Shown here: positions 29,367 to 54,572 of the stretch, piece by piece
How positions within the stretch are numbered: position 1 is the first letter of the stretch
Layout: every line of letters begins with the position of its first letter
From: Bacteroidia bacterium
GTDB lineage: Bacteria; Bacteroidota; Bacteroidia; Cytophagales; Cyclobacteriaceae
Direction of reading: 5' to 3'
Length of the DNA: 64,000 nucleotides
NCBI GenBank assembly: GCA_030425425.1
Contig: JAUIAO010000027.1
Span: 722 to 64,721 of the forward strand
Translations under genes and position numbers: made by a program
The notes under the pieces: generated by a model
Seen by the model: only the letters and a program-made list of their open reading frames with translations
Database searches by the model: none
What the model was told of the DNA's origin: nothing

Positions 29367-30263
29367 GTGAAATTCCAAAACCTTATCCGACACCTGGCCT
29401 TGCTTATTGTAGGCCTGCTCTATGGAGCCAATTATAGTATTATGAAAACTGTGACGCCACAGTATCTGGATGCGTTTGGTTTTTTAGTACTTAGAGTCGG
29501 TGTTGCTACATTGATTTTCTTACCAGTAGGGTTAATTCATGGAGAAAAAATCAATTGGCGCGAAGATGGTCTCAGGTTTTTTCTTAGCGCTTTGTTTGGT
29601 GTAGGAATCAATATGATCTGCTTTTTCAAAGGGCTTAGTCTCACCACCGCGATTAATGGATCTATTATCATGACGCTCACGCCCATCATGGTTTTTGTGA
29701 TTTCAGTATTGGTCTTAAAAGAAAGAATTCTGAAACGTAAGGTACTTGGATTAATACTTGGACTGGCTGGTGTGCTTCTCATTATCTACAAAAAAGATAT
29801 TCAGATCAGTCAGGGAAATTGGGTGGGAGATGTGTTGATTTTTATCAATGCACTGAGCTATGGTGCATACTTGGTGATTGTGAAACCTCTGCTCAAAAAA
29901 TATAAACCGATCACAGTAGCAATGTATGCTTTTCTAATTGGTTTTTGGTTCATGATTCCATTTGGTTGGAATGAATTTACTACTGCCCAATGGTCGGAAA
30001 TACCATGGTCTATCTGGTGGAATATTGCGTACGTGATTTTGGGCACTACAGTGATTGTGTATTTTATCAATATCTGGGCCATGAAAAAAGTCAACCCATC
30101 CACTGTAGGAGCGTACATCTATGTGCAGCCAGTCTTCGCTACGCTGATTGCAGCGATGTTTTTTGAGGAGATTATGACTATAAAACACCTTATTGCCGCT
30201 ATGCTGGTTTTTGGAGGAGTTTGGTTAGTGATTAAGCCAATAAAAGATTCTTCTGGTCAATAA
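29367..30263 (+). CDS. DMT/EamA family transporter
   Basis: About 10 TM helices, two EamA repeats, GD.LIF.NA.SYG.YLV. Confidence 0.92.
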   Translation: MKFQNLIRHLALLIVGLLYGANYSIMKTVTPQYLDAFGFLVLRVGVATLIFLPVGLIHGEKINWREDGLRFFLSALFGVGINMICFFKGLSLTTAINGSIIMTLTPIMVFVISVLVLKERILKRKVLGLILGLAGVLLIIYKKDIQISQGNWVGDVLIFINALSYGAYLVIVKPLLKKYKPITVAMYAFLIGFWFMIPFGWNEFTTAQWSEIPWSIWWNIAYVILGTTVIVYFINIWAMKKVNPSTVGAYIYVQPVFATLIAAMFFEEIMTIKHLIAAMLVFGGVWLVIKPIKDSSGQ

Positions 30264-45937: not shown

Positions 45938-48925
45938 TTAATCTTTATTCTTTTTTGAGTTCAGGTCAATTACGACAGGAGTCGCGATGAACACTGAAGA
46001 GTAAGTACCAATAAGGATACCTACAAGCAATGCAAATGAGAACCCTTTCAAAGCAGGTCCACCAAATATGAACAATACCAATACCACAATCAATGTAGTT
46101 ACTGATGTGATCAATGTACGGCTAAGTGTGCTGTTGAGTGATTCATTGAATACATTCTTCATTTCAGAGCCACTCTTGATGCCAAGGTTTTCTCTGATTC
46201 TATCAAATACAACCACGGTATCGTTGATTGAGTAACCAATAATTGTCAATATCGCTGCAACAAAAACCTGATCTACTTCATATGACACTCCAAACAATGA
46301 TGCAATGGCGAAAGCAGACAACACAAACAAGGTGTCATGGAAAAGTGCCACAATTGCACCCAGACCAAATTGCCATTTTCTGAATCGAATCAAGATGTAG
46401 ATGAAAATACTTATCAACGCAAACAGCGCTGATTCTACAGAAGAGTTTTTAATATCATCGGCTATTGTTGCGCCTACTTTAGATGAACTGCTGATAGAGA
46501 AAGCACTTTCCAGTTCTTCAGGATTTCCATTGGTTTCGGTAAGTCCCGTTGACGCAATTCCATCAATGAGTGATTGCTGAACTTTAGCATCTGCCTCATC
46601 AGATTCATCCTCGATCATGTATGATGTTGTGATTTTCAGAATATTGTTGGCACCATATGTTTTCACTTCCGTACCTTCATTGTCAAAGTATGGCAGGATA
46701 TTTTGCTTCAACTCTGTAGGTGTCACAGGGTCGCTGAAAGAAACGACAAATGAACGACCACCTTTGAAGTCCACGCCCAAAGTCAATCCTTTGAGAATCA
46801 TAGCGACAATACCCAAAATGATAAATGCAGAGCTGAACAAGTAAGCCATTTTACGCTTACTGATGAAATCAAAATTTAAGCTTGTAAGTGCATTCTTAGA
46901 AAAAGCGTTCGCAAATGACATAGTAGATTTTTCTCCCTTTTTGCTGAAGAATTCTACTATCACTCTGGTTATGAATACTGCACTGAAGAATGAACTGGCA
47001 ATACCAATCATTAATGTGATTGCAAATCCTTTAACAGGTCCTTGACCTAACACATACAGGAACAAACCTGTAATGAATGTGGTCACGTTCGCATCAATGA
47101 TTGAGCTGAATGCTTTATTATAACCACTGCTGATCGCTGCTTTTAGTCCAGACCCATTTCTGAGTTCTTCTTTGATCCTTTCGAAGATCAGTACGTTCGC
47201 ATCGATTGACATACCAATAGTCAATACAATACCCGCGATACCTGGCAAGGTCAGTGCGGCACTTAGCTGAGCCAGAATTCCCAGAATGAAGAAAATGTTG
47301 AATGCGAGAGCTACGTTGGCCACCAAACCACCTTTAGCATAGTAAAGCACCATGAATATGATCACAATTGCCAAACCCGCTACAATAGAAATGATACCTT
47401 GTTTCTGAGCAACTTTACCCAAAGTTGGTCCTATTACCACATCCTCTACGATGGTGGTTGGAGCTGGTAAAGCACCAGCTTTCAAGATGTTTGCAAGGTC
47501 TTTTGCTTCTTCAATAGTGAAATTTCCGGTGATTTGTGAGTTACCGTTAGGAATTTCACCTTCGACATTTGGCGCAGAATAAACATAATTATCCAAAACA
47601 ATGGCGATTCTTCGGCCTACGTTGGCTCCTGTAAGTCTTCTCCATGTTTTAGCACCAGCCACACTCATCTGCATACTGATAGATGGTCTTGAGCGCTGAT
47701 CCAAATCTTGACGAGCATCTGTGATCACTTCACCAGTAAGTGGCGCTCTACCCGTTCTTGTTGTCTTGATAGCATGAAGTTCCAGTAATTCTGGAGCACC
47801 GATAGTTTCATTTTTTATTGGTTTTACTGCCCACAAGAATTTCATGTTTGATGGGATCATCTGCTGCACATCCTCTCTCTGCATGATTCTGTTGATAGCA
47901 GCTGTATCTTTCACATCATAGATCAATCCGTACTGAGATTGCAAAAGAGAAAATAGCGGCGACACCTGGCTGTTGAATGCAGAGTCTAACTGACTATCTG
48001 TAGTGTCTTCTGATGCAACTGCAGATGTGTCATCTGAATCTTCATCTGACAATAAGCTTGAAAGGTCATCAGATTCGTTGATGGTTTCATCTACAAAGTC
48101 TTCATCACTCAAGTCATCAGCAGGAAGGGCAGTTTCTTGCTCTGCAACCAAAAGACCATTGATAGATTCCAGGGTAGGAGAGATCTCATTGATCTCATAT
48201 ACTTCCCAAAATTCTAGTTTAGCAACACCTTGCAATAGTTTTCTAACTCTTTCTGGGTTATCCACTCCCGGTAATTCGATCTGGATTCTGCCTGTTCCCT
48301 GAAGTCTTTGAATATTTGGCTGAGACGTTCCGAATCTGTCAATACGAGTTCTCAAGATGTTGAATGAACGATCAATCGCACTTTCAACTTCAGAATTGAT
48401 TATTTCCAATACCTCATCGTCCGAAGAATTAAGAGAAATTCTTCCTCTGTTTGCTGCATTTGAGAAAATGGATGCGAGAGACTTGTTAGGTGCTTTACTG
48501 CTGAAAACACTGTAAAATTCGTCTACATAATTGATCTGTGTTCCTCTGATATTCTGTTTAGCCTCTACCAACGCAGCTTGAAAATCCGGATCTGGATTAT
48601 TAGCGCTCAATCCTTTAAGGATATCTACCGGAGAAACTTCCAGTGTTACGTGCATACCACCCTGAAGGTCAAGACCAAGGTTCAGCTCGGTTTCTTTTAC
48701 TTGCTGGTACGTATACTCGATGCCTAATAAGTTGTAAATAGGCTCGTTCCAGACAGAGTCCAGATAACGTTGCTTTTCAGCAAAATCGATGTTACCGTTT
48801 TCATCTGTGTTGGCCTCAGTGGCGTCCTTTTGAATAGACTGTGCTACAAATGTGAATGACAAATAGTAGATGCACAGTAAGGAAATGATGATTGTAAGAA
48901 ATACAACAAAACCTTTGTTTTTCAT
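45938..48925 (-). CDS. secDF: Protein translocase subunit SecDF (fused)
   Basis: LGLDLQGG, LRTRIDRFG..QP, AIVLD, GP.LG, IGMSIDANVLIFER, G.DFKGG, GYSINDTVVVFDRIRE. Confidence 0.98.
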   Translation of the reverse strand: MKNKGFVVFLTIIISLLCIYYLSFTFVAQSIQKDATEANTDENGNIDFAEKQRYLDSVWNEPIYNLLGIEYTYQQVKETELNLGLDLQGGMHVTLEVSPVDILKGLSANNPDPDFQAALVEAKQNIRGTQINYVDEFYSVFSSKAPNKSLASIFSNAANRGRISLNSSDDEVLEIINSEVESAIDRSFNILRTRIDRFGTSQPNIQRLQGTGRIQIELPGVDNPERVRKLLQGVAKLEFWEVYEINEISPTLESINGLLVAEQETALPADDLSDEDFVDETINESDDLSSLLSDEDSDDTSAVASEDTTDSQLDSAFNSQVSPLFSLLQSQYGLIYDVKDTAAINRIMQREDVQQMIPSNMKFLWAVKPIKNETIGAPELLELHAIKTTRTGRAPLTGEVITDARQDLDQRSRPSISMQMSVAGAKTWRRLTGANVGRRIAIVLDNYVYSAPNVEGEIPNGNSQITGNFTIEEAKDLANILKAGALPAPTTIVEDVVIGPTLGKVAQKQGIISIVAGLAIVIIFMVLYYAKGGLVANVALAFNIFFILGILAQLSAALTLPGIAGIVLTIGMSIDANVLIFERIKEELRNGSGLKAAISSGYNKAFSSIIDANVTTFITGLFLYVLGQGPVKGFAITLMIGIASSFFSAVFITRVIVEFFSKKGEKSTMSFANAFSKNALTSLNFDFISKRKMAYLFSSAFIILGIVAMILKGLTLGVDFKGGRSFVVSFSDPVTPTELKQNILPYFDNEGTEVKTYGANNILKITTSYMIEDESDEADAKVQQSLIDGIASTGLTETNGNPEELESAFSISSSSKVGATIADDIKNSSVESALFALISIFIYILIRFRKWQFGLGAIVALFHDTLFVLSAFAIASLFGVSYEVDQVFVAAILTIIGYSINDTVVVFDRIRENLGIKSGSEMKNVFNESLNSTLSRTLITSVTTLIVVLVLFIFGGPALKGFSFALLVGILIGTYSSVFIATPVVIDLNSKKNKD

Positions 48926-49012
48926 TTTATTAATTGATTATGTAAAAATTGATAATTTATTTCGGCTAGTTAGCCTGGAAGATTGATAATAATACGGCTG
49001 ATGGTTTTCGCC

Positions 49013-49381
49013 TCAGGGAGCATTGGGGGAAATGATCCTGCGAAATAGTATTTTGAGGGCTTTGCTACCCGGCAAGATTACCTGATCAGTTGAGGAGGTT
49101 TCTTCACTGTCATCATCCAGGTCAGGGAGTATGTAGTTGAGTTGAAAATCCTGATGAAAGTTGATGTGAACAGATGAAGTGATAGCATCAAAAGCGCCAA
49201 CCTTCAATTCTGGCTGCTGATCAGATTGCTGATCATTATTGTTTCCAGATTCGGATGCAGTGATTTGTACTTGGGGTACCACAGGAGTCGTTAGAGTCAA
49301 TGACACAAAACCAACCAAAAGGCCCAAAATCACCACAAAGCGGTAAGACAGATTCGATATGTAATCAATACCTTGTTTCAA
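49013..49381 (-). CDS. secDF upstream ORF, candidate translation-arrest (monitoring) peptide
   Basis: Hydrophobic N-terminal segment, polar linker, C-terminus ILFRRIISPNAP-TGA, 87 nt upstream of secDF; TACATTTG at 49389-49396. Confidence 0.6.
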   Translation of the reverse strand: MKQGIDYISNLSYRFVVILGLLVGFVSLTLTTPVVPQVQITASESGNNNDQQSDQQPELKVGAFDAITSSVHINFHQDFQLNYILPDLDDDSEETSSTDQVILPGSKALKILFRRIISPNAP

Positions 49382-49430
49382 AGCGCGACAAATGTAGTGA
49401 TTTAGAATTGATTCGAGAAGTCTAATTCAT

Positions 49431-50051
49431 TTATTGTTCCAGCCTTCTATTTAAGAATGTAGTTACCACATCCAGAGCAACAGAGAATCCATTGTGATTA
49501 GGAATGATGATATCCGCTTCGTTTTTTAGCGGTTCTATGAATTTTTTGAAAGAAGGAGTCACATGATGCTGAAAGCGATACAGTACATCATTGAGGTCAT
49601 AGCCTCGTTCTTTAGCATCCCTGTTGATTCTCCTGGTCAGCATAAGGTAATCCGGTGCTTCGATGAAAATTTTGAAATCCATCAAATCTAAAATCTCCTG
49701 ATAGTAAAAAGTGAAAATTCCCTCTACTACAATAATCGGGGTGGATTTGATATGAATTTTTTCAGGCGTGCGTTCGTCGTTGTTGAAAGTATATTCTGTA
49801 ATCGTAATGTCCTTGCCAGATTTAAGTTTTTTCAGGTCTGCTGAAAACCTGGCCCGATCTAGTGATTCAGGGAGGTCGAAGTTTTCTATGCCCAAATCAT
49901 CTTTAGGTTGCTCAGTTCTGGGCTTGTAATAGTTATCTAATGAGAGTAAGCTTACCGCTTCATTACCAAATTTCTCCAAAAGCTGATTGAGAAAGAGTGT
50001 TTTTCCAGAACCACTTCCACCTGTAATCCCAACAAGCATTGACTTTTTCAT
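49431..50051 (-). CDS. udk: Uridine kinase
   Basis: GITGGSGSGKT, DNYY, NFD.P.S, VEGIF, RR..RD..ERG. Confidence 0.93.
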   Translation of the reverse strand: MKKSMLVGITGGSGSGKTLFLNQLLEKFGNEAVSLLSLDNYYKPRTEQPKDDLGIENFDLPESLDRARFSADLKKLKSGKDITITEYTFNNDERTPEKIHIKSTPIIVVEGIFTFYYQEILDLMDFKIFIEAPDYLMLTRRINRDAKERGYDLNDVLYRFQHHVTPSFKKFIEPLKNEADIIIPNHNGFSVALDVVTTFLNRRLEQ

Positions 50052-53774: not shown

Positions 53775-54572
53775 TCAATCAAATCCCGGTTCATCCGGGA
53801 TTTTTGTTTCTTGCCCCTGAAGTTTTTCTATCCAGAAGTTGTTATAACCTTCTCCAATATGTAAGGTCACCATGCCTAGTTGAAGTAATTCAAGGATCGC
53901 CAGAAAGTTGTAAATCACCAGAATCTTTTCAGGTTTTTCAGCGACCATTTTTTCGAATGAGATTCTTTGATCCGGTTCCTTCAGCAGCCTTTCGATAATA
54001 AATTCCTTTTGGACTGATATAGTATAAGGGTATTGAACAACCTGATGTGTAGGTTTGGCCTGCTCGTATTCGTACCTTTTCAATACTTTCTGAAACACCT
54101 TCATCAACTTGTAGAGATCAAGGTCTTGCATCTCCGCTTCTACATTGATGTTTTCGGAGAGCTTTCGGATCTCACTTAGCAGATTACCTCTTCTTTCTCT
54201 ATCCAGTCGTTCGGCCTCCAGAGCAGATAGATCCCCAATTACAGACTTATATCTTTTGTATTCCAGAAGATGTTTGACCAATTCTTCTCTTGGGTCTATT
54301 TCATTCCCCTCTTCATCCAAGACAGGTCTGGGGAGAAGCATCTTCGCCTTAATCCTCATGAGCGTGGCTGCTACCAGAATAAATTCACTGGCTATTTCCA
54401 CATTCATTTCTTCCAGATGCTGGATATAGTCCAGAAAGTCACTGGTAACTTGCGATATCGGGATATCATAGATATCTAATTCATCGCGCTCTATGAAGAA
54501 CAGCAATAAGTCGAATGGCCCTTCGAAAAGGGGCAACTTGATTTCGTATGTTTTGTTACTTTCCTGACTCAC
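53775..54572 (-). CDS. scpA: Segregation and condensation protein A
   Basis: FEGPFDLLL..I, DIPI..VT..FL, SEFILVAATLMRIKAKMLLP, FLAILEL. Confidence 0.95.
   Translation of the reverse strand: MSQESNKTYEIKLPLFEGPFDLLLFFIERDELDIYDIPISQVTSDFLDYIQHLEEMNVEIASEFILVAATLMRIKAKMLLPRPVLDEEGNEIDPREELVKHLLEYKRYKSVIGDLSALEAERLDRERRGNLLSEIRKLSENINVEAEMQDLDLYKLMKVFQKVLKRYEYEQAKPTHQVVQYPYTISVQKEFIIERLLKEPDQRISFEKMVAEKPEKILVIYNFLAILELLQLGMVTLHIGEGYNNFWIEKLQGQETKIPDEPGFD
53781..53806 (+). terminator. ndk terminator overlapping the 3' end of scpA
   Basis: AAATCCCGG-ttcat-CCGGGATTT followed by TT. Confidence 0.75.

Follow-up and report, generated by a model that had tools for sequence, protein, structure and literature searches.

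A uDF_NAP-stop leader ORF directly upstream of secDF in a relative of Marinoscillum: conservation, predicted promoter and candidate coupling to secDF

The leader ORF and its relatives

The locus lies on the minus strand of the window, i.e. the whole 64,000-nucleotide stretch of DNA that was analysed. It comprises a fused secDF gene, a short spacer, an upstream ORF (uORF) and a promoter-like element, as follows.

45938..48925, minus strand: fused secDF, 995 aa, the presumed regulated target
48926..49012, minus strand: uORF-secDF spacer, 87 nt, A/U-rich
48964..48975, minus strand: weak spacer hairpin, GGCU-aacu-AGCC
49013..49381, minus strand: uORF, uDF_NAP-stop leader peptide, 122 aa, with a TTG start and a TGA stop at 49013..49015
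49016..49063, minus strand: putative arrest module K-ALKILFRRIISPNAP, residues 107-122, last codon CCC
49070..49288, minus strand: acidic linker, predicted to be disordered, residues 32-104, pLDDT below 65 and no secondary structure
49295..49363, minus strand: signal-anchor or signal sequence, a hydrophobic stretch of residues about 7-29 (core 15-31) that follows basic residues
49383..49384, minus strand: predicted transcription start, giving a leader of 2-3 nt
49389..49396, minus strand: Bacteroidota-type -7 box TACATTTG (consensus TAnnTTTG), read directly from the sequence

An earlier note on this DNA had described a 122-aa ORF located 87 nt upstream of secDF, and this was confirmed; its translation ends in ...ILFRRIISPNAP, followed by TGA. 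The secDF product, a 12-TM membrane protein, matches the NCBIfam equivalog NF009585 with 1300 bits, as well as the Pfam entries SecD_SecF_C, SecDF_P1_head and Sec_GG. Searches of Pfam and NCBIfam at E <= 0.01 gave no match for the uORF, to YajC or to any other family, and no relevant Rfam family was matched. Leaders of this kind were named uDF_NAP-stop by Fujiwara, Tsuji, Yoshida, Takada and Chiba (2024, Nat Commun 15:2711; PMC10987492), who reported 396 such uORFs upstream of secDF in 400 genomes, in Bacteroidota only; this is the survey to which the earlier note had correctly referred. The traits that define the family were found in the window. The uORF adjoins secDF on the same strand (gap of 87 nt), carries Asn-Ala-Pro directly before the stop codon (...SPNAP-TGA), has an N-terminal localisation signal according to hydropathy and AlphaFold2 (cleaved signal or anchor), and resides in a Bacteroidota host, the closest loci being those of Marinoscillum, Ekhidna and Cyclobacteriaceae, i.e. 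Cytophagales. The neighbouring gene udk is 70-82% identical to udk of the loci from these same groups. Judged by its sequence, the window uORF is orthologous to the uDF_NAP-stop leaders published for Bacteroidota, which immediately precede secDF. The feature is genuine, but it falls into a family already described in 2024.

A direct protein search returned 16 relatives of the uORF product, in all of which the C-terminal NAP motif is invariant, and a profile search returned 232 cluster representatives. Together with a C-terminus that is invariant despite synonymous variation, these relatives place the uORF far beyond chance. These relatives come from Marinoscillum, Ekhidna and Cyclobacteriaceae, in keeping with the taxon of the uDF_NAP-stop family. 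The motif [FL]xxII[SA]PNAP was present in all 89 fetched loci and in the window despite heavy synonymous change, and the consensus C-terminus of the family reads [IVT]L[FL]xxII[SA]PNAP. Among 161 proteins compared, most of them profile matches, 150 end in NAP and 7 in NSP. Across 23 loci the last 13 residues of the peptide were unchanged, although as many as 6 synonymous codons were used at a position (6 for Arg, 4 for Ser and 4 for the Pro at -4). Since the peptide end is invariant and synonymous change is free, selection acts on the peptide and not on the RNA. The earlier note had expected orthologs to share a conserved C-terminus and a variable middle, and the alignment clearly displayed this pattern: most of the conservation falls on the last 11-13 residues, where it stops exactly at the stop codon, the remainder being variable. 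AlphaFold2 predicted a helix at residues 105-117.

The peptide of Echinicola vietnamensis (125 aa) that was tested in vitro ends in IVAPNAP, as decoded from primer KFpr_23, and the window peptide in IISPNAP, a comparison that covers the last 7 residues only; bridging variants such as IIAPNAP occur among the profile matches. In the published assays, 30-50% of the E. vietnamensis product was found as peptidyl-tRNA in the E. coli PURE system and >50% in the B. subtilis PURE system, and toeprinting placed the stop codon in the A site of the stalled ribosome (PMC10987492). This arrest is partial, requires the stop codon and depends on N(-3) and P(-1) (PMC10987492).

Codon usage at the termination site was also biased. 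CCC encodes the terminal Pro in 52 of 81 unique loci and the internal Pro at -4 in 24 of 81, which suggests tuning of the termination step. Within the Marinoscillum/Ekhidna clade, TAG and TGA are the preferred stop codons and TAA is rare (2/26). Avoidance of TAA was rejected as a family-wide rule, since TAA is used in 25 of 55 loci of the wider family. Neither the CCC last codon nor the clade preference for TAG/TGA appears in the accessible text of PMC10987492.

The N-terminal part of the peptide was then considered. Its most hydrophobic 15-mer spans residues 16-30 (Kyte-Doolittle 2.72), within a hydrophobic core of 16-17 residues that basic residues precede, and AlphaFold2 places a helix at residues 7-29 with a pLDDT of about 92, in agreement with the export-type hydrophobic N-terminus claimed earlier. 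G24 is nearly invariant in the homolog alignment. The claim of an unstructured acidic linker likewise held, given the disorder predicted by AlphaFold2 for residues 30-104 and the 13 D/E against 1 K counted in them (net charge about -12). The linker contains weakly conserved motifs (FDAITSS and LPD), and A66, I67, L85 and P86 are invariant within the close clade. Across the family, the middle region has a median net charge of -10, the hydrophobic segment starts near residue 13, and a median of 91 residues (IQR 88-92) separates this segment from the C-terminus. Such an architecture, consisting of an export signal, a 91-aa spacer and an acidic linker, is compatible with a force-released arrest that would monitor Sec function.

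Promoter, start codon and spacer

The earlier note had placed a -7 element 7 nt before the TTG, and we indeed found TACATTTG at 49396..49389, separated by 7 nt (tcgcgct) from the TTG at 49381. Of the 28 loci that make up the Marinoscillum/Ekhidna clade (L001-L028), 22 share with the window a TAnnTTTG box that ends exactly 7 nt before a TTG. Box and gap are better conserved than the adjoining part of the coding sequence, and the box is retained where the upstream gene differs or sits on the opposite strand, as in L008. TAnnTTTG is not enriched window-wide (0.37 per kb observed, 0.49 expected), so that the significance of the box derives only from its conserved position. In Flavobacterium johnsoniae, the -7 element covers -12 to -5 and the transcription start lies 4-5 nt further on (PMC6847099). 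By analogy, the uORF mRNA is predicted to be nearly leaderless.

Leaderless translation normally requires AUG. Initiation at a UUG that lies 2-3 nt from the 5' end would be unusual, and this counts against our best explanation. Moreover, G at -10 is almost never found in F. johnsoniae promoters (PMC6847099), and the presence of TAGTTTTG in most clade loci counts against the same explanation. The accessible text of PMC10987492 does not mention a -7 box 7 nt before the TTG. The sequencing runs listed are of DNA and come from biofloc, aquaculture and wastewater metagenomes. On the coding side, the coding pattern begins after the TTG (codon-position entropy 0.90/0.67/1.17), and TTG, or ATG, is kept at the same position across loci.

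In every fetched locus with enough downstream DNA (89 loci fetched), secDF follows the uORF at a distance of 44-219 nt. The spacer sequence is unconserved between loci, and relatives usually carry one hairpin just past the stop codon and another 20-40 nt before the ATG. The AGCC/GGCT elements to which alternative pairing had been ascribed do exist in the window spacer (AGCC at 48999..48996, GGCT at 48975..48972 and AGCC at 48967..48964). The pairing itself was rejected, since the spacer is no more stable than shuffled sequences (z = -0.51 and z = -1.1 in two runs, not significant) and the sequences are unconserved. Consistent with the earlier statement that a strong terminator is absent, the minus strand of the spacer contains no terminator-like site, and the hairpins of relatives show no consistent U-tracts; an intrinsic spacer terminator was therefore discarded. 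With 17 C and 9 G, the spacer has a C/G ratio of 1.9. Other short intergenic regions of the window range from 1.2 to 2.4, and a rut-like skew of C over G was thus not retained as evidence.

Readings of the arrest and its coupling to secDF

We consider it likely that the window encodes a uDF_NAP-stop ortholog whose arrest controls secDF. Transcription would start from a sigma-A(Bfr)-type promoter, with the -7 box 7 nt before the TTG, and would give an mRNA leader of about 2-3 nt. The basic and hydrophobic N-terminus of the UUG-started peptide would target the growing polypeptide to SecYEG, and the linker, which is acidic and predicted to be disordered, would be threaded outward. At the UGA codon, ...ILFRRIISPNAP in the tunnel and peptidyl-transferase centre would impede hydrolysis of peptidyl-tRNA(Pro) by the release factor. 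In the paused ribosome, Pro would occupy the P site and the stop codon the A site, as the in vitro work on the E. vietnamensis homolog suggests. By analogy with SecM and VemP, active translocation dependent on Sec/SecDF would pull on the chain and shorten the pause, and poor export would lengthen it. A longer pause may in turn increase secDF expression, candidate couplings being protection from Rho, protection from RNases and membrane tethering of the mRNA.

The coupling step was examined by constrained partition-function folding, a thermodynamic prediction, for mRNAs that were either free or occupied by a ribosome stalled at the stop codon, using the unpaired probability of secDF positions -20..+15 as a measure of start accessibility. 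In 23 loci, accessibility was 0.609 in the free and 0.605 in the stalled state; in 80 unique loci, the values were 0.572 and 0.582, respectively (p = 0.19). Since stalling leaves accessibility unchanged, the classical coupling mechanism is not predicted, and start unmasking of the SecM/VemP type was rejected in silico, the stalled ribosome leaving the secDF start equally open. The folding model thus predicts no structure near secDF that would sequester its translation initiation region, a point absent from the accessible text of PMC10987492. A combined scenario for the SD-less Bacteroidota might instead involve coupling other than by unmasking (TnaC-like shielding of the nascent spacer from Rho, or shielding from RNases, by the stalled ribosome, and a hairpin after the stop codon that helps to keep the release factor out or caps a processed secDF mRNA), a near-leaderless UUG transcript and CCC-UAG/UGA tuning, and we put this forward only tentatively.

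The same folding result bears on a different reading, in which the pause serves as a tether of the XBP1u type: the signal-anchor would dock the uORF-secDF mRNA at the membrane translocon, where the large polytopic SecDF would be made, and expression would be constitutive, with no feedback. The secDF start is predicted to be open in the free and the stalled state alike, so that no switch is visible; the tight distance between hydrophobic segment and C-terminus (IQR 88-92 aa) fits the geometry of docking during a pause, and SecDF, as a 12-TM membrane protein, would be a suitable target. We nonetheless judge this reading unlikely, because no bacterial precedent for secDF is known and the same architecture acts as a feedback sensor in SecM, VemP and ApdA/ApdP (PMC10987492). 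The acidic linker, moreover, is not obviously needed by a tether.

A role of the uORF product as a small membrane-anchored protein with its own job, such as a YajC-like partner of SecDF, would make its C-terminus an interaction motif and its slow termination incidental. Other bacteria have genes for small proteins with one TM segment, YajC among them, immediately before secD, which speaks for such a role, as do the weak mid-region motifs FDAITSS and LPD and the incomplete arrest in the published in vitro assays. However, the Pfam and NCBIfam searches gave no match, to YajC or any other family, and conservation of the last 11-13 residues up to the stop codon, next to a disordered and variable remainder, is typical of arrest peptides and not of a partner that folds. 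In the homolog, stalling is abolished by point mutations of N and P, and the CCC preference is confined to the last codon. We therefore regard a function of this kind as quite improbable.

A last reading holds that the ORF exists by chance, or that its start was mis-called within a 5' UTR, and that its peptide is not made. It could draw on the TTG start, on an N-terminal region that has no ATG in the window, and on disagreement among gene callers over where the relatives begin (at an internal Met in some annotated proteins), but it is already refuted by hundreds of profile homologs with amino-acid conservation and synonymous variation, by a codon-position pattern that starts right after the TTG and by a TTG or ATG conserved at the same place, so that we give it practically no weight.

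Significance and comparison with known systems

As one more member, the window uORF contributes little that is new: the family itself, its genomic context, its host taxon and its arrest in vitro have been in print since 2024. The names NAP-stop and NSP-stop were not found in any later paper in the literature searched. The family belongs to Bacteroidota, which do not use Shine-Dalgarno sequences (PMC6847099) and lack the mechanism on which the textbook SecM/VemP switch depends. The comparison across loci offers variables for tests in native hosts, namely the predicted lack of start unmasking and two recurrent but unconserved spacer hairpins, together with a promoter that abuts the start codon and the CCC and TAG/TGA bias at the termination site.

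Compared with the published uDF_NAP-stop leaders, the window uORF shows no difference in kind: it lies upstream of secDF, has an N-terminal localisation signal, ends in N-A-P followed by a stop codon, and is the ortholog carried by an uncultured bacterium related to Marinoscillum. The uA_NSP-stop leaders (PMC10987492) are similar in that they occur in Bacteroidota, arrest the ribosome at termination while Pro occupies the P site, and have Asn and Pro at -3 and -1, respectively. They differ in ending in N-S-P-stop, in preceding secA rather than secDF, and in the importance of Lys at -5, where the window has Ser.

VemP of Vibrio, SecM of E. coli and ApdA/ApdP also are exported leaders that precede a sec gene and have a long spacer between signal and arrest site, and VemP controls secDF2. 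By analogy, the arrest of the window family is also presumed to be released by force and to exert feedback on a translocation factor. In contrast to the termination arrest of the window family, these peptides stall in elongation at sense codons (RAPP-like or other). Moreover, their stalls melt a stem-loop that hides a Shine-Dalgarno sequence, whereas no sequestering structure is predicted in the window.

TnaC, the leader peptide of the E. coli tna operon, resembles what is predicted for the window peptide: it stalls at its stop codon while peptidyl-tRNA(Pro) occupies the P site and release-factor action is inhibited, and it controls a downstream gene across an untranslated spacer. Unlike the window peptide, for which no ligand is implied, TnaC needs free tryptophan, has no export signal and blocks Rho loading. 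The Pro-stop of TnaC is present in the window; the C/G ratio of the spacer is ordinary, so a rut site is not demonstrable.

Finally, the window peptide can be set against generic slow termination at Pro-stop ends. In E. coli, a C-terminal proline reportedly induces pausing and SsrA tagging (Hayes, Bose and Sauer in 2002), and the window peptide likewise carries a C-terminal Pro at its stop codon, which would slow peptide release. Unlike a generic Pro-stop, however, the family has 10 or more further upstream residues that are invariant, and N(-3) is required. These features indicate an evolved arrest module and not a generic Pro-stop effect.

The leader ORF, its neighbourhood and its conservation

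The earlier note had described a 122-aa ORF (the uORF) lying 87 nt before secDF, with a -7 element ending 7 nt before its TTG and a spacer devoid of a strong terminator. This description proved correct in each element, and no terminator-like site was found on the minus strand of the region.

Features of the uORF-secDF region
49431..50051, minus: udk (uridine kinase, PF00485), upstream of the uORF, ending 49 nt 5' of the TTG
49396..49389, minus: -7 box TACATTTG, with exactly 7 nt between box and TTG
49381..49013, minus: uORF, TTG at 49381, TGA at 49015..49013; 122 aa, MKQGIDYISNLSYRFVVILGLLVGFVSLTLTTP...SKALKILFRRIISPNAP
49016..49018, minus: last sense codon, terminal Pro
49012..48926, minus: uORF-secDF spacer, 87 nt
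48925..45938, minus: fused SecDF, 995 aa (NCBIfam NF009585 equivalog, 1300 bits; Pfam SecD_SecF_C, SecDF_P1_head and Sec_GG)

The only terminator-like match of the region (49218..49235) lies on the plus strand, antisense within the uORF; it stems from a direct/inverted repeat, GATCAGCA...TGATCAG, encoding DQQSDQQ, and is probably incidental.

A direct search with the uORF peptide recovered 16 relatives. When 1.84 billion cluster representatives were searched with a profile, 232 matched at E <= 0.001; nearly all of these are 95-135 aa long and aligned to their final residue. Among 161 collected proteins, the C-terminal consensus was [IVT]L[FL]xxII[SA]PNAP, and the chain ended in NAP in 150, NSP in 7 and NGP in 2. 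The C-terminal motif was present in all 22 genome loci (Marinoscillum, Ekhidna and Cyclobacteriaceae MAGs) and in 67/67 metagenome loci, and the secDF start (M[KRQ]NKG...YYLSFT) followed 44-219 nt after the uORF in every locus with sufficient downstream sequence. The final 13 residues were invariant in the 22 genome loci and the window while their codons varied freely, with Arg written in six ways, Ser in four and the Pro at -4 with every one of its four codons. On this alignment evidence, the uORF is a real gene selected as a peptide. The predicted pattern of a conserved C-terminus with a variable middle was also borne out, since, in 152 family representatives, no positions stood out other than the last ~11 residues, one mid-region Ala and one Gly of the hydrophobic segment.

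Family-wide, a hydrophobic 15-mer begins near residue 13, and its distance to the C-terminus is, in these sequences, tightly constrained (median 91 residues, IQR 88-92). The middle of the peptide carries a net charge of about -10. AlphaFold2, run with 58 homologs, gave a confident helix at residues 7-29, an unstructured stretch at 30-104 and a helix at 105-117 directly before PNAP. We also observed a sole conserved mid-region patch among the collected proteins, xFDAIxS, about 52-58 residues from the C-terminus. Speculatively, a ribosome at the stop codon would leave this patch at about the periplasmic opening of SecY, and the P1 head of SecDF might capture it there.

The upstream neighbour was mostly udk, with udk-uORF-secDF synteny in most of the 89 loci. 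However, the upstream gene was different or on the opposite strand in L008, L012, L031, L047 and L056, so the uORF-secDF unit must have its own promoter. Where udk is present, just 20-60 nt separate its stop codon from the start of the uORF, and the uORF promoter therefore overlaps the udk 3' end. One typical Cytophagales udk-uORF-secDF locus (L004, PBTY01000003.1) came from a MAG labelled "Rickettsiales bacterium isolate NP5"; its udk is 81% identical to that of the window, and the contig or bin is probably mislabelled.

Relation to the uDF_NAP-stop family

NAP-stop leaders have indeed been reported in Bacteroidota. In a screen of some 30,000 genomes for uORFs preceding secA, secDF and yidC, Fujiwara et al. 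(2024, PMC10987492) defined uDF_NAP-stop (396 uORFs, 400 genomes, three Bacteroidota orders) by a localisation signal at the N-terminus and by N-A-P directly before the stop codon. At the sequence level, the window uORF carries all of these defining features and is a uDF_NAP-stop ortholog from an uncultured Marinoscillum-like organism, which we found in biofloc, aquaculture and wastewater metagenomes. The feature thus belongs to an already published family. A search of later literature by family name found no paper using that name.

The 125-aa Echinicola vietnamensis member was shown to accumulate 30-50% peptidyl-tRNA in the E. coli PURE system and >50% in the B. subtilis PURE system; arrest was lost without the stop codon and required residues -3 and -1, and according to the toeprint the A site of the arrested ribosome holds the stop codon (PMC10987492). 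Decoding of reverse primer KFpr_23 from that study gave a tested C-terminus of ...IVAPNAP-TAA with CCA as last codon. Over the seven residues compared, the window has IISPNAP versus IVAPNAP, and the bridging IIAPNAP occurs among the profile matches. The arrest-leader interpretation is supported to the extent of these in vitro tests.

Ignoring kinship, the last Pro codon was CCC in 20/23 loci and in 52/81 unique loci overall, and the -4 Pro codon was CCC in 24/81; the genes nearby use CCC for just 12-17% of their prolines. CCC is thus preferred at the terminal position. The stop codon was TAG or TGA in 24/26 loci of the window's clade (kinship again ignored), while 47-54% of neighbouring genes end in TAA. 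Avoidance of TAA was rejected as a family rule, since 25/55 loci of the wider family use it. Native terminal contexts may stall more strongly than the published construct, because the latter carried CCA-TAA.

Promoter and start codon

TAnnTTTG followed by 7 nt and TTG was found in 22 of the 28 close-clade loci as well as in the window, and box and gap were more conserved than the coding sequence after them. The TAG of the box is an in-frame stop in many loci, so its conservation is non-coding. Codon-position entropy downstream of the TTG (0.90/0.67/1.17) has a coding signature, which supports TTG as the start. Loci of the wider family mostly have ATG as their first in-frame start, and about half of them show a -7-like box 6-21 nt upstream of it. 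A caveat to the promoter reading is that TAGTTTTG is present in most clade loci, as G at -10 is nearly absent from F. johnsoniae promoters (PMC6847099).

The -7 element of F. johnsoniae promoters occupies -12 to -5, and 4-5 nt separate it from the TSS (PMC6847099). Applying this spacing, the predicted TSS in the window is at about 49384/49383, giving a leader of 2-3 nt. In Flavobacterium, only a minority of mRNAs are near-leaderless: leaders longer than 10 nt make up 87% in F. johnsoniae (PMC6847099), and the leaderless share is 5.5% in F. psychrophilum.

The window as a whole showed no TAnnTTTG enrichment. Such a box ends 7 nt before the first start codon of a minus-strand gene with a GTG start, ScpA-like by eye (53775..54572), and 4 nt before that of a plus-strand gene (29367..30263); because of these two, the uORF may not be the only gene of this genome with a near-leaderless transcript.

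Within uORF codons 8-9, the in-frame ACATAT[CT]GAA (Ile-Ser/Leu; 49353..49362, minus) is almost fixed in nucleotides in the Marinoscillum/Ekhidna clade, its Ile codon always being ATA, whereas the C-terminal Ile codons vary freely; most of the wider family lacks it. The pattern is suggestive of a constraint on the RNA or DNA itself, some 20 nt after the predicted TSS.

Spacer structure and possible coupling to secDF

The remaining interest lies in the physiology of the family and its coupling mechanism, not in this window instance. Neither sequence nor length of the spacer is conserved between loci. Over 80 loci, spacers were modestly more structured than mononucleotide shuffles, by ~2 kcal/mol over the initial 45 nt and by as much over -70..-13 (p about 6e-7 in either case), with the window at the weak end (z = -1.1 and -0.5). 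Usually, one hairpin starts 1-8 nt past the stop codon and a second closes 20-40 nt short of the ATG; two pairs of close relatives, L013/L015 and L010/L011, show compensatory changes. The spacers showed no consistent U-tracts, an Rfam search gave no match, and the C>G skew of the spacer was ordinary for the window.

We then folded the segment from 60 nt 5' of the stop codon to 40 nt inside secDF, once unconstrained and once with -12..+15 around the P-site codon made unavailable for pairing. Between the two runs, the initiation region of secDF (-20..+15) barely shifted in its mean unpaired probability, from 0.609 free to 0.605 blocked in 23 loci and from 0.572 to 0.582 in 80 unique loci (Wilcoxon p = 0.19), so that unmasking of the kind known for SecM and VemP is not predicted by this model. 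This is in keeping with a phylum in which Shine-Dalgarno sequences are not used (PMC6847099). Possible modes of coupling are RNase protection or processing, membrane tethering of the mRNA, and shielding from Rho as in TnaC.
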